From a bacterium (GTDB lineage Bacteria > UBA8248), in assembly GCA_965213625.1 (NCBI GenBank), contig CBDBZU010000004.1, positions 3,744,001-3,808,000 of the forward strand: 64,000 nt of DNA. The letters run 5' to 3'. Shown piece after piece: positions 22,394-42,433 of the stretch (its first letter is position 1; the number at the start of each line of letters is the position of its first letter). A program made the position numbers and the translations under genes. Under the pieces are notes generated by a model. That model made no database searches. It was not told where the DNA came from and saw only the letters and a list, made by a program, of their open reading frames with translations.

Positions 22394-23033
22394 CTTCCTC
22401 TCCAATGAGGATGATGTGTTCACCGGCGAGCACGTTCGTCACAAAAGGGTTTCCGGCGGCTCTGCGTTCATTGAACTCCCGGGAAGTGTAAAGCGTGGGA
22501 CTGATCCTACGGGAAAGACTGATCTCCACCGGCGAGAGTGCGGTATATACTTCCTCCAGCATCACACTGTCGGCGACAACGAGCAGGTCGACGTCGCTAC
22601 CCGCAGTTTCGGTCCCCTCTACGACCGACCCGTACACCAAGGCGAGCTTCACACGATCGAATAGCGGCTCCAACGCCCGCCGGATCGGTTCCGCCGGGGC
22701 GAGCGTCTTGCGGACGATGCCGCTCATCTCCTCATACACCGGACAGTCTGGATTGGCCTGGTAATGCTTCTGCCTGCCGATAGGTGTGACGCTTACCAGA
22801 CCGCTGGATGCGAAGCGCTTGAGCTCACGCTGCACGGCGCCGGAGCCGGACCCCGTCAACCGGATCAATTCGCTGGCGAAAAAGCTCCGTCCGGGTTGGC
22901 CGAACAGGAGCGCCAGGAGCCGCTGCTGGGTGGTGGTGAAAAGCGCATCCGCAAGACCGGTAGTTGCAGCGTCGGACCCGGACGGCTTGCGGCGAGTGAT
23001 GCGTGAGAGATGTGTTGTCGTTATATTTCCCAT
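22371..23033 (-). CDS. Winged-HTH + MNT nucleotidyltransferase (antitoxin/regulator); start uncertain
   Basis: GSGAVQREL HTH segment and VYGSVVEGTETAGSDVDL. Confidence 0.8.
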   Translation of the reverse strand: MGNITTTHLSRITRRKPSGSDAATTGLADALFTTTQQRLLALLFGQPGRSFFASELIRLTGSGSGAVQRELKRFASSGLVSVTPIGRQKHYQANPDCPVYEEMSGIVRKTLAPAEPIRRALEPLFDRVKLALVYGSVVEGTETAGSDVDLLVVADSVMLEEVYTALSPVEISLSRRISPTLYTSREFNERRAAGNPFVTNVLAGEHIILIGEEDDAPTTG

Positions 23034-23063
23034 AATGGGCATTATGATGCCCATTTTAGGCAT
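23026..23063. promoter_or_regulatory. Tandem palindromic operator-like boxes
   Basis: TTTCCCATAATGGGCAT and ATGCCCATTTTAGGCAT, 21 bp apart, overlapping the MNT start region. Confidence 0.55.
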
Positions 23064-23193
23064 ATTGCAAGCAGGGATATCGAATTATCCCGATGCTCGA
23101 CACACGGCAAGTCGTTCCCTCCCCTTGCCGGGTCGCCTCCCCTCTGCTAGTTTTTTGGAAAATCCAACCATTCTTTTCAGGAGGAAGCGCGCG

Positions 23194-23718
23194 ATGGCGG
23201 AATTCACCGTAGCCAATTTCAAGGACGTATCCGGGGGTCTGCAAGAGGGCCAGTTCGCAGTCGGCGAGCGGAAGAAGGCCAGCGGTCTGGCGGATATTGA
23301 CCCCATCTATAGAGATTTGCTCGATAAGCCGATTACGGTCACGCTGGGCCTCATCGGCCCCGACGGGCGCGTGAACATGACGCCCATGTGGTTCGACTAC
23401 GAGGGCGACACGATTCTGGTGAACACCGCCGCTCATCGCGCAAAATGCGGATGGATACGAAACAACCCGCAGTTGACGATCCTGCTCGTGAACCCCGAGA
23501 ACCCCTACCACTGGATGAGCATCAAGTGCACGGTGGTGAACGAGATACGAGAGGACGGGCCGGGCGGCGAGAAGGCGACCGAGCAACTCGACCGCATCTG
23601 GACAAAATACACGGGCGCGGACCCGCCCTATGCACTCAGGGACCCCGTGATCGACGAGAAGCGCGTACTCTTTGAGTGCCGCGTGGACCGGGTCGCCACG
23701 TTCGGAAAACCGGCGTAA
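23194..23718 (+). CDS. Pyridoxamine 5'-phosphate oxidase-like (PPOX/FDOR) protein
   Basis: DGRVNMTPMWF, NT...RAK...IRNNP and PENPY motifs. Confidence 0.8.
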   Translation: MAEFTVANFKDVSGGLQEGQFAVGERKKASGLADIDPIYRDLLDKPITVTLGLIGPDGRVNMTPMWFDYEGDTILVNTAAHRAKCGWIRNNPQLTILLVNPENPYHWMSIKCTVVNEIREDGPGGEKATEQLDRIWTKYTGADPPYALRDPVIDEKRVLFECRVDRVATFGKPA

Positions 23719-30684: not shown

Positions 30685-31665
30685 ATGGTCTTGAGTCCAC
30701 CCGCAACAGACGGCCCGCTCATCGCCGTCGCCGGAACGCGCTTCGGCCCCCCCACGGTCGAGGAGGAGATACTCTCGCCACTGGGTTCCCGCCTGCGCCT
30801 GGGCATGGGATCGGACCCAGAATCCCTGGTCGAACTCTGCGCGGAGGCGGAAGGCGTCATCATCGGCTCGATTCCTACCTTCACGGCCGAGGTCATCGCG
30901 CAACTAAAACGCTGCAAAATTCTCGCGCGCGGCGGCGTGGGTGTGGACAACGTCGACATGGAAGCCGCAACAGCCAAAGGAATTCACGTCACTTACGTAC
31001 CGGATTACTGCGTCGATGAGGTATCGGACCACGCCATGGCGCTCATCCTCTATTTCGCCAGAAAACTGGAGCAGGGGATCGCGGAAGTCAAAAAAGGCGG
31101 TTGGGGAATCGCTGCTTTGAGACCCATCGCACCGCTTCGGGGCGCGACGCTGGGCGTTGTGGGAATCGGGAGGATCGGCGCGACACTGGCCAGAAAAGCG
31201 CGCGCATTCGGGATGCGGATCATCGCGCACGACCCCTTCGCGCCCGAATCCGTTTTCGAGGAATCAGAGGCCGAGAACACAGCGCTTTCGCAGATATGGG
31301 AGGAGTCGGACTACATCTCCCTTCACGCGCCCTTGACGCCTGAGACACGCGGCCTGGTGAACGTCCAAGCGCTCGATCGCATGAAGACGGACGCCGTATT
31401 GATCAACGTGGCGCGAGGCGAACTCGTGGACGAGAAGGCGCTGGCCAATGCGCTCAAGAAAAACGCCATCCGGGGCGCGGGCCTGGATGTACTCGAAGAA
31501 GAACCCCCGCGTCCGAATCATCCGCTGCTCGGGCTTCCCAACTGCCGTGTCACGCCGCACAGCGCGTGGTACAGCACGGCCGCCCTGGAAGACATGAGGC
31601 GAAAGGTGGCGACTGACGTATTGCGCGTCCTTCGAGGCGAGGAGCCGCGCTATCCCGCGAAATAA
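30685..31665 (+). CDS. D-isomer-specific 2-hydroxyacid dehydrogenase (CtBP-like)
   Basis: GVGVDNVD, VPDYC, GIGRIG, INVARG and TPHSAWYS motifs. Confidence 0.9.
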   Translation: MVLSPPATDGPLIAVAGTRFGPPTVEEEILSPLGSRLRLGMGSDPESLVELCAEAEGVIIGSIPTFTAEVIAQLKRCKILARGGVGVDNVDMEAATAKGIHVTYVPDYCVDEVSDHAMALILYFARKLEQGIAEVKKGGWGIAALRPIAPLRGATLGVVGIGRIGATLARKARAFGMRIIAHDPFAPESVFEESEAENTALSQIWEESDYISLHAPLTPETRGLVNVQALDRMKTDAVLINVARGELVDEKALANALKKNAIRGAGLDVLEEEPPRPNHPLLGLPNCRVTPHSAWYSTAALEDMRRKVATDVLRVLRGEEPRYPAK

Positions 31666-31693
31666 TTGCCCTGCCAGGGACAACCCTGCCGCG

Positions 31694-32542
31694 TTATTTT
31701 TCTATCGGAAAACCGACGACGCTCCCCCACTCCGTCCATGAGCCGTCGTAAATCTTCACGTCTGCATAGCCCAGCATATACCGCATGGCGAACCAGACCA
31801 GACTGGCCCGGTGGCTGAGGCGTCAGTAGAGGACAAGTTCAATCTCATCATCGCTTGCTGCGCCCGCGCCGCTAAGAATCCGCGCAAGCTCATCCGTGCT
31901 CTTGTAGGTGTCGTCCTCGTTCAACAGCTCCCGGAAGAACAGGTGTACGGCCCCTGGTATGCGTCCGGCGCGCTCGGCCCCGTGGTCGAAGCCCGGCGGA
32001 GGCATCACCCGCTCGCCCCTGTATTCCTCGGGCGAGCGCACGTCGAGCAGCACCCTGCCCGGCGCGCCCAGTTTCTCGCGAATATCGTCCCTGCCCACGC
32101 TCAGGACCTCTCCCCCATCCGGCGCGGGGTGAGAGACGGCCGCAGCATCCGGCGCCTCACTCGAGACGGGCATCCCGTCAGCAATCCACTTTTTCTTGGA
32201 GCCGTCGAGCAGCTTCAGATTCGAGAAACCCGCCATCTTGAGGACCCAGAACGCATAGGTCCCGAACTGCACCGGATCGCCGTACAGGACGATTTCATCA
32301 TCCGGGCCGATACCCATCCCGCCCAGACGCTCGGCCAACGCTTGGGGCGTGGCGAATGCGCGGTCCGTCTCGTGCCAGAGCGCCCCTTTCCAGAACCACC
32401 AGTGCGCGCCCGGAACGTGGGCTTCGCGGTAGGAAGCGTCGTCGCCGGCGGATGAAACCTCGATGACGTGGAGACCCGGACTCCCCAGGCGTTCTGCGAG
32501 CCACGCCGTCGAAACAAGGGCGGAATTATCAGTTTGCGTCAT
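31694..32542 (-). CDS. Tandem-domain sulfurtransferase (SseA/rhodanese) with probable selenocysteine at codon 240
   Basis: Frame continues past TGA (31823-31825) as RLSHRASLVWFAMRYMLGYADVKIYDGSWTEWGSVVGFPIEK to TAA 31694; the TGA sits at the catalytic Cys position. Confidence 0.88.
31792..31812 (-). promoter_or_regulatory. Candidate bacterial SECIS hairpin
   Basis: ACCGGGCC-AGUCU-GGUCUGGU stem-loop beginning at +11 after the UGA. Confidence 0.7.
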
Positions 32543-32648
32543 GTCTAAATATCCTCACAAGAAAAAAGACTATGAAAAACGCGTCACGAAACGAGCTTTT
32601 CCTATTGGAATACCCGATTCCTTCCCCAAAATCACTTCCCTTGGGCGT

Positions 32649-32971
32649 CCCTCGATACGGCCCTTCGGGCCTACTCGGGATGAGGGGTATTTTGTTCGAA
32701 ACGGGAGGGAGACAACCACATCTCTCAAACCTCTCCTTCACCCTGAGCAAAACGACCGCCTCCCCCGGACCAGCGCGAAATACCCTTCGCCCCAAGCAAA
32801 ACGACCTCCTCCCCCCGACTGGCGCGAAATCCCCTTCGCCCCCATCCTGAGCAACACGGCCCCCCACCCAAGGAGACAGACAAAACTATCCCGATTGACT
32901 TTACTCCCACCTCGAGCGACGCGACCTCCCATCCCTCACCCTGAGTAGCCGCGAAGCGGCGTATCGAAGGG
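32649..32971. repeat. Inverted pair of CCTCA(T/C)CCYGAGTAG-hairpin-CGTATCGA repeats enclosing ~49-bp tandem units
   Basis: Copies at 32649-32686 and 32933-32971; AGCAAAACGACC...GCGCGAAAT.CCCTTCGCCCC repeated at 32746 and 32795. Confidence 0.8.
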
Positions 32972-33058
32972 CGTCTGCCCGGAATGCGGGAACCACTCGA
33001 CCGTGCCTGCGCCGACCCATCACGCTCCGCCATCCAAGCACCCGTTTCCCGACAAAAA

Positions 33059-34483
33059 TCACCCGCCGCACATGGGTGGCTTCTTATTCCGTATATCCGG
33101 CGTGGCCTCTTCGAACGCATGGGACACCTGCAGCACGCGGGCCTCCTCCCAGGGCGGTCCCACGATCTGCACCGACACGGGCAGGCCGTCCGCGCTGAAG
33201 CCCGAAGGCGCAGACATGACCGGGAAACCGAACAGGTTGTAAGGGCCGGTCTGCGGTCTGCCGAGGCCCGTGAAGGAGAGCTCCTTCCCGTTCACCGTGC
33301 CCATCTCCGTCGCAATGAACCCCGCGGGGCAAGGATAGCCGGGCGCCAGGAATATATCGATCTCATCGAACACTTTTTCCATTTCGCGGGTGAGCGTGGG
33401 CCGTTCTCTCATAGCGCGCGCGTATTCATCCAGCGTAACGCGGCTCGATATCTCCAGGCGCTCGCGGACGTCGTCGCCGAATTTTTCGGGATTCGAAGCG
33501 AGTCGCTCGCGGTGAACCGACGCCAATTCGGCGCTGGCGATGATGCGCCGCACCTCTCTCATTCTATCCGCGTTCGGGTAACGCACATGGACGACCACGC
33601 CGCCCAGAGCCTTCATGGTCTCTATCGCATTCTCAAAGCCTTTCTGCACCGAAGCGTCGTTTTCCGGGAGATAGAGGTCCTCGCAGACGCCAAAACGCAT
33701 CCCCTTGACACCCTCGCCTATCAGGGCGCAGAAATCGGGCGTTTCGCGATCCTTGGAGCCGGCGTCCGTCGGGTCGTAGCCCGCCATGGCCTGCAGCATG
33801 ATGCCGCAATCGCGCGCCGTCCTCGCAAGCGGGCCGGCGTGGTCGAGAGTCGTAGAGTTCGGAAAAATGCCGCGAACACTCACGCGGCCGTAAGTCGGTT
33901 TCAAGCCCATCGTGCCGCATGCGCTCGCAGGCCCCCGGATAGAGCCGCCCGTATCGGTCCCCACTGCACCGGGGCACATGAAGGCCGCAACCGCCGCGCC
34001 CGAACCGCCGCTCGAACCGCCCGATACCCGCTCGGGATTCCAGGGATTGCGTGTAGGGCCGTAGTGGGGGTTCACGGTGGTGGAACCCGCCGCGAACTCG
34101 TGCGTATTGCATTTCCCGACGATGACGGCGCCCGCTTCTTTCAGCTTTCTCACGCACTCGGCATCCGCCGCCGGGACATTATCCGGGAAGAAACTCGACC
34201 CCTGCGTCGTGAGGACACCCGCGGTATCGATGATGTCCTTGATGCCGACCGGCACGCCGTGCAAAGGGCCGCGGTAGTGACCACCCTGAATCTCACTTTC
34301 CAACTTTGCCGCGTCCTCACGGGCCTCGTCCGCGCATACGGTGATGAACGCGTTGAGTTCGGGGTTCAGGGCCTCGATTTGCCGCAAATGCGCATCCACC
34401 ACTTCGCGCGGGGAGATTTCCCTGCTCTCGATCTGTTGGGCGAGTTCAGATATTGAAAGTAAATTCAGTCCATCGGCGCTCAT
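33059..34483 (-). CDS. Amidase signature family protein (GatA-like)
   Basis: GVPVGIKD, GGSSGGS and GTDTGGSIR motifs. Confidence 0.92.
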   Translation of the reverse strand: MSADGLNLLSISELAQQIESREISPREVVDAHLRQIEALNPELNAFITVCADEAREDAAKLESEIQGGHYRGPLHGVPVGIKDIIDTAGVLTTQGSSFFPDNVPAADAECVRKLKEAGAVIVGKCNTHEFAAGSTTVNPHYGPTRNPWNPERVSGGSSGGSGAAVAAFMCPGAVGTDTGGSIRGPASACGTMGLKPTYGRVSVRGIFPNSTTLDHAGPLARTARDCGIMLQAMAGYDPTDAGSKDRETPDFCALIGEGVKGMRFGVCEDLYLPENDASVQKGFENAIETMKALGGVVVHVRYPNADRMREVRRIIASAELASVHRERLASNPEKFGDDVRERLEISSRVTLDEYARAMRERPTLTREMEKVFDEIDIFLAPGYPCPAGFIATEMGTVNGKELSFTGLGRPQTGPYNLFGFPVMSAPSGFSADGLPVSVQIVGPPWEEARVLQVSHAFEEATPDIRNKKPPMCGG

Positions 34484-37387: not shown

Positions 37388-37840
37388 TTAAAGCTCCTCT
37401 GTATTCATCGCGCCCCAGAATGCGGCGCGGTGCGGCGTTATCTCTATCATCCAGGCGTGGATTGTGATGGGGCCACGGTACTGCGCGTATTTCTGCCGGA
37501 GAAGCGCCGCCGCCGCCTCATACGCCGCAGCGTCCGCCTCGGCGTGGATGACCCGCGCGCTCCCGAAGATGAGAGCGAAACCGAGTTTCGCCCAGTCATC
37601 CTCGTAGTGATCCACCAGAAATGTGACCTGCGGGTTCTCGCGGATATTATCGAGCCTTTTGAGCCGCTCGATGTCTTTTTTCTGCTTGCCGTCCACAGGC
37701 ACGTAAATTTTCCCGTCCACGACGGCGAAAACGACGGGAACGACGTGCGGCGCGGCATCCCTGCTCGCCGTCGCCAGCCGCGCCACGCGCGCACGCTCCA
37801 CGAACGCCCAGGCGTCACCTGAGAGCAGAGGCTTCGTCAT
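37388..37840 (-). CDS. PPOX-class putative F420-dependent oxidoreductase (Rv0121-like)
   Basis: ARVARLAT, PHVVPVVFA, VDGK and LKRLDNIRENPQVTFLVDHYEDDW; start overlaps the upstream stop. Confidence 0.82.
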   Translation of the reverse strand: MTKPLLSGDAWAFVERARVARLATASRDAAPHVVPVVFAVVDGKIYVPVDGKQKKDIERLKRLDNIRENPQVTFLVDHYEDDWAKLGFALIFGSARVIHAEADAAAYEAAAALLRQKYAQYRGPITIHAWMIEITPHRAAFWGAMNTEEL

Positions 37841-39381
37841 TCCGCCTCCCCGTAGCCCCCGCCGCCCGGCGTGATGAGCGTGAGGGTATCGCCCGGCTCC
37901 ATGTCGGTGGTGCCCTTGGGGTCGATTTCTTGCTCGTTGATGCGCACCTGCCCCCGCCCGCCTTGCCCGCCGCCGAACAGGCCAGGTGCTGCCGATTTCG
38001 TGCGCTCGGCCATGAACGAGACAGTGATGCGCGCGGGCGAATCGTTGCGGAAGACGATGCGCTGCCCGCAGCCGCCCCGGAACTGCCCGGCGCCGCCGGA
38101 ATCTCTCAGTATCGTCTTCTCGATGAGCGTGAAGGGCGTGATGCGCTCGATGACCTCTATGGGCGTGTGGGAGACGTTGCTGGGATAGCTCAGGCACGCA
38201 TGCCCGTCTCCGCGCCCGGTGGCGCCCGTGCCCCCGTTCTGGAAGAAGAGCCCGGCCGTCCGCACCCCGCGCTTGTCCAGCCCCGTATAGTTCACGCACC
38301 AGAGCGGAGAGCCGCTCGCCGCGGGCACCTCCTCGGGGATGACGGGTGCGAGCGCCTCGAAAACGGCGGCGGGCAGATAGTGGCCCACCAGCATCCGGCC
38401 GCCTCCCGCGGCGGGATGGAGCGGCTCCAGGATGCTGCCCGGCTCCGTCCGCACGTCGATGGGCCTGAAACACCCCTCGTTGTTGGGAACCTCGGGGCAC
38501 AGGACGCACTTGATGGGGTAGACCGAATAGGCATAGGTGTAGTTGTAGGCCACGTTCACGGCGCGGTCGACCTGGGGCGAGGAGCCCGCATAGTCGATCA
38601 CCAAGGAATCGCCTGTCTTCTCGATTCTCGTCCGCACCCGTATGGGTTCGGCAAGTCCGTCGGTCTCGATCTCGGACACGAATTCCCCGTCGGGCAGACG
38701 GCGCAGGGCGTCGCGCATGGCTTTCTCCGAGCGTCCCTGTATCTCCTTCGTCAGCGCGCGCAAATCATCGAGACCGTATTCATCCAGCAGATCGCCGAGG
38801 CGCTTTTCCGCCAGGCGGTTCGCCGTGAGCTGGGCGTTGATGTCGCCCATCACCAGGTCGGGCACGCGCACGTTGTAGCGGATGAGGTCGATGAGCGTCT
38901 GGTCGGGCTCGCCGCGCCGGTACATCTTCATCATCGGGATCTGGAGGCCCTCCTCGTAGACCTCCCTCGGGTCGGGGGAGCGGATTTTTCCGCCGATATC
39001 CGGCAGATGGGCCGTGCTGGCCGAGAAGCCGATGAATTTGTTTCGGTAGAACACGGGCTTCACGATGTTCACGTCGGGGAGATGGCCCGTTCCGTACCAG
39101 ATGTCGTTGGTGATGAGGATGTCGCCGGGCTCTAAAGTTTCGGGCGGAAACGCTCTTAAGAAATGGCGAACCGTTATCGGCAGGGTGCCGATGAACGAGG
39201 CGATGCTGGCGGAGGACTGCACGAGGGAGTGGCCCTGATCGTCGGTGATCACACAGGAGAAATCGTTCGATTCGCGCACCAAAGTCGAGAAAGAGGTGCG
39301 CACCAGCGTCGCCGCCGCCTCGTCCACGATGCCGATGAGGCGCCGCCAGAGCACTTCCAGCGTGATGGGATCGAACGACAT
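37837..39381 (-). CDS. Hydantoinase B/oxoprolinase subunit
   Basis: DPITLEV, ESNDFS, TGHLPD, DSGGAGQFRGG and TPGGGGYG motifs. Confidence 0.92.
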   Translation of the reverse strand: MSFDPITLEVLWRRLIGIVDEAAATLVRTSFSTLVRESNDFSCVITDDQGHSLVQSSASIASFIGTLPITVRHFLRAFPPETLEPGDILITNDIWYGTGHLPDVNIVKPVFYRNKFIGFSASTAHLPDIGGKIRSPDPREVYEEGLQIPMMKMYRRGEPDQTLIDLIRYNVRVPDLVMGDINAQLTANRLAEKRLGDLLDEYGLDDLRALTKEIQGRSEKAMRDALRRLPDGEFVSEIETDGLAEPIRVRTRIEKTGDSLVIDYAGSSPQVDRAVNVAYNYTYAYSVYPIKCVLCPEVPNNEGCFRPIDVRTEPGSILEPLHPAAGGGRMLVGHYLPAAVFEALAPVIPEEVPAASGSPLWCVNYTGLDKRGVRTAGLFFQNGGTGATGRGDGHACLSYPSNVSHTPIEVIERITPFTLIEKTILRDSGGAGQFRGGCGQRIVFRNDSPARITVSFMAERTKSAAPGLFGGGQGGRGQVRINEQEIDPKGTTDMEPGDTLTLITPGGGGYGEAE

Positions 39382-41468
39382 TATCCGTTCACCTCGATGA
39401 CGATGTGGCCGCCCGCATCTTTCCGAAAACGCGCGTCTTCGGGCACCACGATGGTGGATTCACGCTCCTCGACGATGGCGGGGCCGGAGAATTCCTGCCC
39501 GGCGGGCAGCGAATACCGATGATACACGCGCGCCTCACCGAAACCACGCTCGGGACCCGCGTATATCTTTCTCCTCCCCTTATCGAATTCCGCCTCGTCC
39601 GTGAGCGGCGCGACGTCCATGCCTTGAGGACCCGGCCCCAGCATCGTCAGCCGCCACGCGGCCACCTCTGCCGCCACGTTCTCGATTTTTCTCAAATACC
39701 GCCGCTCATAGGCGCGCTCGAAGGACTCCTGCATATGTGCGCTATCGCGAACCGGCATCCCGCCCGCCTCGGGCAAGGGGACGCTCACCGTATCCGTCTG
39801 CCCCCGGTAGCGCATGTCGGCTGCGCACAGAAACTCCCAGCGTCCGTCCACGCCGATTCTATCGCCCAGGGAATCCTTCATCTGAGCGGCCATCTCCCGG
39901 TACAACGCCTCGACACACGTCCAGTCGACGGCATCCACGTCGGACACCAGGACGCGGACAGCGTCCGCCCTCGGCCTTGCCGCCAGAAGGCCGGCCGCCG
40001 ATGCCACGCCCACGTCCGGCGGGCAGACGATACGGCGGATGTAGAGTTTTTTCGCCATGTGGCAGGCATGAAGCGGTGCGGCCCCGCCCGTGGCGATCAA
40101 GGCGTAGTTCCTGGGGTCGCCCCCTTTTTCGGCGATGTGCACGCGCGCGGCGCTCGCCATCTGCTCTGTGATGATCTCATAAATGCCCCACGCCGCATCC
40201 TCGATGCGCATGTCCAGCTTACCGGCCAGGGACGATACGGCCTCTCGCGCTCGTTCTGCGTCTAGCCGCATGGCGCCGCCCAGGAAAAAATCGGGATTGA
40301 GATAGCCCAGGAGCAGGTTCGCATCCGTAACGGTGGGCTTAACGCCACCCTGGGCGTAGCAGGCGGGCCCCGGCATCGCGCCAGCACTCTGGGGACCGAC
40401 CCGGATCAGCCCCAGGTCGCTTATCTGCGCGATGCTCCCGCCGCCCGCGCCAATCTCGACCAGATCCACCGTGGGCGAGAGGATGGGCAGTCCGCTCCCC
40501 TTTTGGAACCTCGATGTCCGCGCCACCTCGAAGCGGTTCTCCGTCGCGGGTTCGCCGTCTTCGATCAGACAGATCTTGGCCGTGGTGCCGCCCATATCGA
40601 ATCCCAGGGCGTGGGCCTCGCCCAGTGAGCGGGCGATTTGCGCCGCCGCGAGCGCGCCGCCCGCAGGCCCCGACTCGATGATGCGCACCGGATGCTCGCG
40701 CACGCTGTCAATCGTGGCGAAGCCGGAATTGGAGAGCATGATGAAGAGATCGCCCGCGAAGCCCAAATCCCGCAGGCTGGCGAGCAGGCGCGTCAGGTAC
40801 GCATCGGCGATGGGCCGCACGTAGGCGTTCGCCGCCGTGGTGGAGGTGCGCTCGTACTCACCCGTCTCCGGGGCCACCTCGGATGAGATGGAAACGGGCA
40901 TATCGCCCGCGACTTGCTCGATGGCCGCCTGAGCCGCCCTTTCGTTCGCAGGATTCACGGGCGCATGGAGGAACGATACGGCGATGGATTCCGCCCCCAG
41001 CTTGAGGAGTCTTTCCGCCTCGCGCTTCACGGCCTCTACGTCCAGAGCGGCCACCACCTCGCCATCCACGTGGACGCGTTCGGGCGCCTCGGCCCGCAAC
41101 TCCCCGGGAACAAGCGGCTCGGGCATCTCCTGGTGCAGGTCGTACAGGTCGAAGCGCTTCTCACGGCCGATCTCGATGACGTCTGAGAACCCCTTTGTGG
41201 TGATGAGGCCCGTGCGCGCTCCCTTTCTCTCGATAAGCGCGTTGGTGATAAGGGTGGTGGCGTGCACGATGCTCGCGAGGCCGGACGCTTCAAGGCCTGC
41301 GGACTTTAATATGTTTTGAAAACCTGTAAGCGTGCCCTCGGCGGGATCATCGGGCGTGGTCAGCACTTTGGCGATATGGACCGCGCCGCGCGCCTCGTCG
41401 ATGAGCACGAGGTCGGTGAACGTGCCCCCGATGTCTATCCCTAAGCGAATTTTCATATTTTTACTCAT
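39381..41468 (-). CDS. Hydantoinase A/oxoprolinase subunit
   Basis: DIGGTFTD, ESGPAGG, DMGGTT, GAGGGS, PTVTDA and DMRYRGQ motifs. Confidence 0.92.
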   Translation of the reverse strand: MSKNMKIRLGIDIGGTFTDLVLIDEARGAVHIAKVLTTPDDPAEGTLTGFQNILKSAGLEASGLASIVHATTLITNALIERKGARTGLITTKGFSDVIEIGREKRFDLYDLHQEMPEPLVPGELRAEAPERVHVDGEVVAALDVEAVKREAERLLKLGAESIAVSFLHAPVNPANERAAQAAIEQVAGDMPVSISSEVAPETGEYERTSTTAANAYVRPIADAYLTRLLASLRDLGFAGDLFIMLSNSGFATIDSVREHPVRIIESGPAGGALAAAQIARSLGEAHALGFDMGGTTAKICLIEDGEPATENRFEVARTSRFQKGSGLPILSPTVDLVEIGAGGGSIAQISDLGLIRVGPQSAGAMPGPACYAQGGVKPTVTDANLLLGYLNPDFFLGGAMRLDAERAREAVSSLAGKLDMRIEDAAWGIYEIITEQMASAARVHIAEKGGDPRNYALIATGGAAPLHACHMAKKLYIRRIVCPPDVGVASAAGLLAARPRADAVRVLVSDVDAVDWTCVEALYREMAAQMKDSLGDRIGVDGRWEFLCAADMRYRGQTDTVSVPLPEAGGMPVRDSAHMQESFERAYERRYLRKIENVAAEVAAWRLTMLGPGPQGMDVAPLTDEAEFDKGRRKIYAGPERGFGEARVYHRYSLPAGQEFSGPAIVEERESTIVVPEDARFRKDAGGHIVIEVNG

Positions 41469-42433
41469 CATTCCGCGTTCAGGAGTATCTCGCCGTCTTT
41501 GATAATGGCTTCGCCGTCGAACCAGACAGAAGGCGCGCGGATGATGGCATCGAAGTGGGTCTTTGCCTGCACGTCGCCGCCCAGCATGGCGGAGGTGCCG
41601 ATACCGATGTGGATCGTGCCGTTCACGCCCTCATCGTTCAGCATCTCGCCGGTGAAATCCTTGCATTCGGGATTCAGGCCCATCGCGAACTGCGCAATGT
41701 TGTAGACCCACTTATCGTTCTGCGCGGCCAGAAGTTTTCGGAGGAAATCCGCCTGCCGCCCGCCCGATATCTCCCGCACGAAGCCATCCTCAATACGAAA
41801 AGTAACAGGCTCCTCGATAACCCCCACGCCGTAATAGGGAATGCTGCCGTCCACCACGAGCGCGCCGTTCGTCGTCCCGTCCAGAGGCGACGTGTTGGCC
41901 TCGATGTTGGGAACGGCAGTGAAGCCTGGGCCGTCGAGCACGCAGGCATGACTGTTGCCCGCGCGTCCTTCAATAGAGAGCGTAAGTTCGGTGCCCGCCG
42001 GGTTGGTGACGCGCACCTCAGTCGCCTCGCTCAAACGCGCCGCCAGGGCGTCGCAAAGCGGTTTTCTGGCCCTGAAATCCGCCATCAGGCCGCCGTGTTC
42101 CATCTGGCCGGGCGTGAACGCCGTCATCGAGAGCACGCGCGCGCCCGCGCCGACCGCCTCCCTCGTCGCCCGCGTATGGGCCAGAGCGTGGGTGACGGGC
42201 AGGAAAACCACGTCGGACGCCCGCATCGCCTCAGCCACGGCGCGCGGCGGCTCCTCGTTGTCGATGCTTCTGGGTGGCGAGACGGCGATGGTGGCCCGAG
42301 CGCCCAAGTCTCCCGCCTCGGCACTTAGCGCCTGCGCGATGAGAAGACGCTCGGCGTCTGTTACGATGAGCACATCCTCGCCTTCCTTCACGCCGGCGCA
42401 GTCGCCCACAAGAATTTTCGCACCTTTTTTCAC
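41468..42433 (-). CDS. Peptidase M29/aminopeptidase T-like metalloprotein
   Basis: EPP..VAEAM, GTELT, NIAQFAMGLNP, DEG..GTIHIGIG and HFD; GTG start after AGGA. Confidence 0.8.
   Translation of the reverse strand: MKKGAKILVGDCAGVKEGEDVLIVTDAERLLIAQALSAEAGDLGARATIAVSPPRSIDNEEPPRAVAEAMRASDVVFLPVTHALAHTRATREAVGAGARVLSMTAFTPGQMEHGGLMADFRARKPLCDALAARLSEATEVRVTNPAGTELTLSIEGRAGNSHACVLDGPGFTAVPNIEANTSPLDGTTNGALVVDGSIPYYGVGVIEEPVTFRIEDGFVREISGGRQADFLRKLLAAQNDKWVYNIAQFAMGLNPECKDFTGEMLNDEGVNGTIHIGIGTSAMLGGDVQAKTHFDAIIRAPSVWFDGEAIIKDGEILLNAE

Follow-up and report, generated by a model that had tools for sequence, protein, structure and literature searches.

Sec-containing rhodaneses are not a new kind of protein, and COG2897 selenoproteins have been in print since 2005. 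In the sections of the sources on which we draw, a Sargasso Sea study describes a 'rhodanese-related sulfurtransferase, COG2897' as a new selenoprotein family with three sequences (PMC1088965), and a 'sulfurtransferase COG2897' appears again in the symbionts of Olavius (PMC1976440). Reviews of 2022 and 2026 distinguish several rhodanese forms with the motifs UxxS, UxxG, CxU and UxxxxU, the 2026 review (PMC13188914) giving a rhodanese 'form' with the motif UxxG. In the BSepDB text, three of the ten genomes richest in selenoprotein genes are MAGs that bear the label Nitrospinota, Nitrospinaceae or Nitrospinae (GTDB UBA8248), with 48-54 such genes each. As our criterion for a selenoprotein we used an in-frame UGA that aligns with Cys in homologues, as in PMC1088965.

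Here we describe a gene on the minus strand of a bacterial genome that is almost certainly, judging from the comparisons below, a selenoprotein gene. Positions are those of the window, the whole 64,000-nucleotide stretch of DNA that was analysed, unless a contig is named. The gene very probably encodes a cytoplasmic tandem-domain rhodanese (SseA/COG2897) whose catalytic Cys is replaced by Sec, inserted by way of a hairpin past the UGA. The original prediction had called this a hidden selenoprotein, but as biology it is not hidden, since Sec COG2897 sulfurtransferases have been published since 2005.

Reading frame and domain structure

The ORF listing gives the rhodanese gene 239 codons, ending ...IELVLY* at the TGA at 31825..31823. 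Past this TGA the same frame is open for 42 more codons, with YDGSWTEW as codons 265-272, and the 282-residue frame running on through the UGA that had been predicted was recovered in full, with the TGA as codon 240. The features of the gene are as follows.

31694 to 32542, minus strand: the whole rhodanese gene, of 282 codons and a TAA stop, residue 240 being Sec, from translation with TGA read as U
32552 to 32556, minus strand: ribosome-binding motif GAGGA, 9 nt ahead of the ATG, found by inspection of the sequence
32542 to 32540, minus strand: start codon ATG
32168 to 32521, minus strand: N-terminal non-catalytic rhodanese domain, residues ~8-125, from the second Pfam stretch, the own-genome PF00581 match at 3776180-3776512 and alignments
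31697 to 32092, minus strand: C-terminal catalytic rhodanese domain, residues ~151-282, in which the UGA interrupts ORF calls, from the best Pfam stretch and the structural model
31823 to 31825, minus strand: in-frame UGA, codon 240, at the catalytic-Cys position, from the TGA column shared by 20 of 20 same-genus sequences
31805 to 31825, minus strand: active-site loop codons U-R-L-S-H-R-A, residues 240-246, from alignment
31696 to 31694, minus strand: TAA stop of the full frame

The N terminus MT(Q/P).. is kept in 20 of 20 orthologues, and inspection by eye of MTQTDNSALVST... revealed no evident signal peptide. As for the possibility that reads might show TGC or TGT at the UGA, assembled contigs (not raw reads) of three runs, X1, X2 and X4, from one study that is possibly the source of this DNA, are identical over 31650-32600. 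The X7 contig represents a relative with 90 differences, none of which, among the differences listed, falls between 31778 and 31828.

The gene encodes two tandem rhodanese domains of the SseA/COG2897 type, with the catalytic site in the C-terminal domain. Pfam PF00581 matched two stretches of the read-through protein (E 4e-30), the better of which covers residues 152-273 and spans the TGA. In the alignments the N-terminal domain has Asp (LYGD) at the site equivalent to the Sec of the catalytic domain, Sec240 stands in the column where 10 Cys homologues have their Cys, and Y239-A246 is invariant in a 29-sequence alignment that includes Cys homologues. Full-length sequence matches were obtained to the Thermus thermophilus rhodanese 1UAR and to CysA2/CysA3/SseA (3HWI, 3AAX, 3HZU), with E-values from 2.4e-60 to 3e-50; for 1UAR (E 2.4e-60, loop CRIAERS), residues 8-282 align to 8-282. 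Together, the homologue and PDB alignments confirm that the UGA stands in place of the catalytic Cys. An AlphaFold2 model of the read-through protein, built with Cys placed at position 240 and a 29-row alignment, had a pLDDT of 87.5 and a pTM of 0.89, with low confidence only at residues 1-3 and ~270-282. In this model a strand (235-240) ends at the Sec position and a helix (243-256) comes next. Foldseek superposed the whole length of the model on 1UAR and on Mycobacterium tuberculosis CysA3, CysA2 and SseA (TM scores of 0.85-0.87), in agreement with the sequence matches.

Thiosulfate-type rhodaneses carry the loop CRxGx[R/T], and mercaptopyruvate-type enzymes carry CG[S/T]GVT. Compared with the thiosulfate type, the loop U-R-L-S-H-R fits at Arg +1 and Arg +5 and has Ser instead of Gly at +3, where 1UAR has Ala. 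Judged by its loop sequence, the gene appears to fall in the thiosulfate-sulfurtransferase-like branch with the loop C-R-[ILM]-[GAS]-[EH]-R. The loop of human TST is given as CRKGVT in the text of PMC9369223. The NCBIfam model for 3-mercaptopyruvate sulfurtransferase (PRK11493) scored 95 bits, below its cut-off of 250. The model for the rhodanese_LYCAU (seleno)protein (NF041203; 'form 3', CxU) was rejected at 36.4 bits against a cut-off of 115, and its CxU motif is absent here, the local sequence LVLYURLS having no Cys two residues before Sec.

Sec and Cys forms and selection past the UGA

We searched 41 whole genomes with stops read through. Twenty genomes of the same genus contained a full-length orthologue, at 76-91% identity, with exactly one TGA each. 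In genome G003 the gene lies in two parts at the ends of two contigs, the C-terminal part containing the TGA, and in G017 (79% complete) only the last 36 residues of the rhodanese were found, short of the TGA site. Homologues outside the genus were without the stop (61% identity in G023 and 46-50% in five genomes of other families). When the gene was aligned by codon with 19 same-genus relatives, the TGA fell in one column in 20 of 20 sequences, all with ...Y-TGA-RLSHRASLVWFAM..., and G009 was alike. A second scan, of named genome records whose titles read Nitrospinota bacterium or uncultured Nitrospinaceae bacterium, gave 36 loci, 34 covering the UGA site and 2 not. Of the 34, the 19 loci with at least 76% identity carried TGA and the 15 with no more than 63% carried TGC or TGT; the named records are largely of the same species as the searched genomes, so the two TGA counts are not independent. 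The codon at the UGA site is thus TGA in close relatives and TGC or TGT in those further away. Among the best 120 protein-database matches listed, the full-length Cys homologues (57-66% identity) had CRLSHR in 99 of 99, followed by A in 97 and by G in 2, so the loop is not the unusual one that the original prediction had taken it to be.

The expectation that the gene would be misannotated proved correct. All of the 21 closest protein-database relatives (74-98% identity) are cut at the TGA, at 237-239 residues, and end ...L(V/T)LY; one shortened record bears the name 'rhodanese-like domain-containing protein'. Because the records examined (21 of 21) stop at the UGA, the databases lack the catalytic residue together with the 42 residues that follow it, and the practical value of the present analysis lies in the annotation of the gene and its orthologues.

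Amino-acid-variable columns in the 20 orthologues numbered 121 of 239 upstream of the TGA and 9 of 42 downstream, and 21 of the 42 downstream columns had synonymous variation only. No frameshift or further stop was found downstream of the TGA in any of the 20 sequences, which have their stop position in common and begin to diverge after it. This pattern of substitution shows purifying selection acting on the 42 codons past the UGA, and by the same comparison the part dropped by ORF callers is the most constrained part of the rhodanese. Gene callers and public records do stop at the TGA, with all 21 close relatives recorded in the short form, as they would if a nonsense mutation had inactivated a Cys-rhodanese and left a pseudogene; but 20 of 20 species, at protein identities of 76-91%, have this TGA in common, the codons beyond it are better conserved than those before it and the stop position is kept, and the chance of a pseudogene is vanishingly small. 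Alternatively, termination at the UGA might be usual, with the 239-residue product as the main or a regulatory form and the full-length protein made only at plentiful selenium. Sec insertion competes with release factor 2 in bacteria, which speaks for such an arrangement; the shortened product would, however, on the structural model, be without the catalytic loop, helix 243-256 and strand 262-266, and selection on the downstream codons shows that it is the full-length form that counts for fitness, which makes habitual termination distinctly improbable.

It is also conceivable that the UGA is decoded but not as Sec, either as Cys through a tRNA-Sec-like tRNA and a SelB-like factor or as Trp by near-cognate read-through. 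UGA-to-Cys recoding systems are described in some bacteria, and the residue inserted at a UGA is not readable from sequence alone. We searched the genome (4.15 Mb in 4 contigs, 96.6% complete) for the Sec machinery, which the original prediction had named as a check, and all four of selA, selB, selC and selD are present over curated cut-offs. Each of the three refuting checks that it had proposed, on the machinery, on close relatives and on reads (here assembled contigs), thus spoke for Sec. The score of selA was 564 bits (cut-off 268) and that of selB 388 bits, over its curated cut-off and covering model positions 1-580 of 581; selD, at 333 bits and likewise over its curated cut-off, itself has one in-frame TGA. 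There is one tRNA-Sec, at 75.9 bits (gathering score 47), which ARAGORN called as tRNA-SeC with anticodon TCA. TGA closes 708 of the 1,499 stop-to-stop frames of at least 400 codons, and the genetic code is not reassigned at TGA. Decoding as something other than Sec is thus very improbable, given selA and selD well above their cut-offs and a tRNA that passes as tRNA-Sec by both methods; moreover, Trp at the catalytic position would inactivate the enzyme, which clashes with the strong purifying selection. The selD gene (locus L011, C4:1518852-1519814, plus strand, outside the window) has its TGA at the VKAGG-U-GSK site, so that SelD would itself be a selenoprotein.

The hairpin past the UGA

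Insertion of Sec at codon 240, the reading we prefer, would call on a hairpin that lies within the coding sequence shortly after the UGA. Its parts and surroundings are listed below.

31784 to 31813, minus strand: 30-nt block, codons 244-253 (CAC...ATG), with no substitution in any of 20 sequences, synonymous sites included
31792 to 31812, minus strand: SECIS-type hairpin, nt 14-34 from the U of the UGA, from the fold of a 24-nt window (-12.6 kcal/mol)
31812 to 31804, minus strand: 5' arm of the hairpin, ACCGGGCCA
31803 to 31801, minus strand: hairpin loop GUC
31800 to 31792, minus strand: 3' arm of the hairpin, UGGUCUGGU
31802 to 31804, minus strand: Ser247 codon AGU, with its G and U at loop positions 23 and 24

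After a 10-nt spacer the stem begins at the 11th base past the UGA and can be drawn with 9 bp and the loop GUC or with 8 bp and the loop AGUCU, which agrees with the predicted hairpin of 8-9 bp at +11 with the loop AGUCU. A 24-nt fold of -12.6 kcal/mol or lower was seen in 83 of 20,000 random genome windows and, at the same offset from random TGA triplets, in 38 of 9,248, about 0.4% in both backgrounds, but the wider 71-nt fold is ordinary (z = -1.03; equalled or bettered by 32 of 200 shuffles), so the thermodynamics of the hairpin are suggestive and not decisive. Gene-wide, a single codon is used in 29 of the 139 amino-acid-invariant degenerate columns; eight consecutive ones lie over the hairpin (label permutation p = 0.00015), and synonymous sites vary in the three codons before the 30-nt block and in codons after it. 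Since the hairpin is invariant, covariation is impossible, and what the alignment demonstrates is conservation of the sequence and not base pairing.

Among the 15 Cys-form loci this stretch shows free variation, with folding energies between -1.9 and -14.1 kcal/mol and a mean of -6.3. Strong stems also occur in some Cys forms (-12.8 kcal/mol in L049 and -14.1 in L085), and L049 has the same stem with the loop UCUCU; because comparable stems occur in these Cys forms, the stem alone is not diagnostic of Sec. In part, the stem follows from the codons of H-R-A-S/T-L-x-W. The hairpins of the Cys forms L049 and L083-L085 could be SECIS remnants, an argument that is made in general terms in the text of PMC1794560. 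The Ser247 codon is AGT in every Sec form, and ACN (Thr) or TCN (Ser) in all 24 Cys-form rows examined. We infer that the codons of H-R-A-S/T-L-V-W may nearly form the stem already and that AGU may complete the working loop.

The likeness to the apex of the fdhF SECIS that had been predicted was upheld by a position-by-position comparison with Escherichia coli K-12 fdhF. Counting the U of the UGA as 1, fdhF has GGUCUG at 22-27 and the present gene AGUCUG at 22-27; G19 C20 and G23 U24 C25 U26 G27 are identical in place, and both hairpins lie within coding sequence. G23 and U24 are nucleotides that we take to be the SelB contacts in E. coli fdhF. Unlike fdhF, the present hairpin has the loop AGUC or GUC instead of GGUC and an uninterrupted 9-bp stem with two G-U pairs, without the bulged U of the fdhF SECIS. 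An Rfam scan of 31600-32000 with E-values up to 1 returned no match.

By analogy with fdhF, SelB-GTP-Sec-tRNA(Sec) would bind the hairpin through its loop nucleotides G23 and U24 and insert Sec as the UGA occupies the ribosomal A site. Without selenium, translation would yield a 239-residue fragment from which the catalytic loop is missing, along with the final helix and strand. In the full-length enzyme, following known rhodanese chemistry, the selenolate would take a sulfane sulfur from a donor to form an enzyme Se-S(-) intermediate, and this sulfur would then be passed to a thiophilic acceptor in a ping-pong mechanism.

The genome holds at least 14 other TGA-containing candidate selenoprotein genes. 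On C4, outside the window, there is a set of AhpD-like genes (TIGR01926) with an in-frame TGA in 12 of 14 matches (for example 2711603-2712121 and 2409923-2410450); 11 of the TGA genes have a C-x-x-U motif and one match has two TGAs. This is an unusually large paralogous set within one selenoprotein family. Local hairpins follow the UGA in these genes, many with a GGUC loop ~25 nt beyond it. The other SECIS-like hairpins of the genome have AhpD coding sequence in common and are variable in spacing; most differ from the rhodanese hairpin in having GGUC loops and in lying 2-3 nt further from the UGA.

In a second two-domain rhodanese paralogue, ~31% identical (locus L044, C4:3027968-3028744, plus strand, outside the window), the catalytic site also has a TGA, with the motif U-Q-T-G-Y-R. 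All of the 21 genomes examined have this TGA, G023 of the sister genus among them, and the hairpin that follows is near-invariant (ACCGUGC, loop GGC, GCACGGU) and begins at nt 14 from the UGA, the same offset as in the gene under study. A third two-domain paralogue (C4:995729-996568) is a Cys form, so Sec forms account for two of the three two-domain rhodaneses of the genome. There is also a 543-codon open frame (C4:2169352-2170776, plus strand, outside the window) with four rhodanese domains and no internal stop. The two Sec-rhodanese paralogues might be selenium relays that hand Se(0), as Se-Se(-) perselenide, to the Sec-containing SelD, and not general sulfurtransferases. This notion, which is drawn by analogy and which we consider unlikely, extends an in-vitro perselenide form of a Cys-rhodanese mentioned in PMC9369223; if it is true, the relay would serve a selenoprotein-rich lineage as a dedicated selenium supply line.

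Origin of the Sec form and relation to known systems

A maximum-likelihood tree of 43 rows, given a midpoint root for display only, groups the 19 Sec rows in a single clade (100/100), and one label change is enough; every other CR(L/M)SHR row, like every CRIGER row, is a Cys form. Gene order is kept across the genus, with an amidase and the rhodanese followed by a convergent 2-hydroxyacid dehydrogenase, a ferredoxin and a DUF1932 oxidoreductase. Of the Cys-form loci under Nitrospinota or Nitrospinaceae titles, five retain the neighbouring dehydrogenase, and in four of these five the ferredoxin is retained as well; because these neighbours are in common, the Sec and Cys forms are positional orthologues. 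Most parsimoniously, the Sec form would have arisen once from a Cys ancestor, at the same locus and at the base of one Nitrospinota-labelled genus. If the hairpins of the Cys forms are SECIS remnants, the direction of change could be less clear than parsimony suggests, the tree having a midpoint root only. The sister-genus genome G023 has Cys in the orthologue of this gene and TGA in the second paralogue, which indicates that the switch from Cys to Sec occurred in a lineage already decoding Sec. Such a switch fits the general Cys-to-Sec trend discussed in PMC1794560. From the aligned codons, the change needed looks small: TGY to TGA, and a Ser AGU codon that places G and U in the loop of a near-formed stem.

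The neighbours of the rhodanese (an AtzE-like amidase, a 2-hydroxyacid dehydrogenase, an FdxA-like ferredoxin and an N-methyl-Trp-oxidase-like flavoprotein) are generic enzymes that give no sulfur or selenium link and no clue to a substrate. Scans of 31500-33100 found no promoter-like site and only two terminator-like sites, both on the plus strand near 33059 and no more than in shuffles. Three direct repeats of ~34-49 nt, spaced 49 and 55 nt and 74-84% alike, lie at 32732-32869, in the 516-nt gap from the amidase gene to the rhodanese start; by blastn they occur nowhere else in the genome, and they could be a regulatory region. Elsewhere in the window, a hydantoinase/oxoprolinase A and B pair adjoins a PNPOx-like protein at 37388-41471 (minus strand), a case of ordinary metabolism, and a second PNPOx-like ORF is found at 22786-23718.

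None of this should surprise a selenoprotein specialist. The present case adds three things: within one Nitrospinota-labelled genus, a positional orthologue appears to have switched from Cys to Sec a single time; the Sec forms alone have a Ser AGU codon, which supplies the loop G and U; and the genome contains a second Sec rhodanese paralogue. With both forms at the same locus in sister lineages, and with a SECIS that overlaps the codons of the active-site loop, the locus offers a clean natural experiment on why and how Cys becomes Sec. It also provides a Sec/Cys pair in a simple enzyme for comparing sulfur transfer by selenolate and by thiolate, of which we found no characterisation for Sec COG2897 rhodaneses in the portions of the literature consulted.

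The gene resembles the published Sec COG2897 family in its two-domain SseA/COG2897 architecture, in having Sec at the position of the catalytic Cys, in the wide occurrence of Cys homologues and in a small hairpin with a loop G directly past the UGA. Unlike the UxxG motif in print, it has U-R-L-S (UxxS) and belongs with the CR[ILM][GAS][EH]R branch, the representatives having been compared by motif only; the second paralogue (UQTG) fits the printed UxxG motif better than this gene does. With 1UAR and CysA2/CysA3/SseA the protein shares an inactive N-terminal domain with Asp and a six-residue catalytic loop with Arg at +1 and +5, whereas those enzymes have Cys in the loop CRI(A/G)ERS and the gene described here has Sec in the loop URLSHRA.
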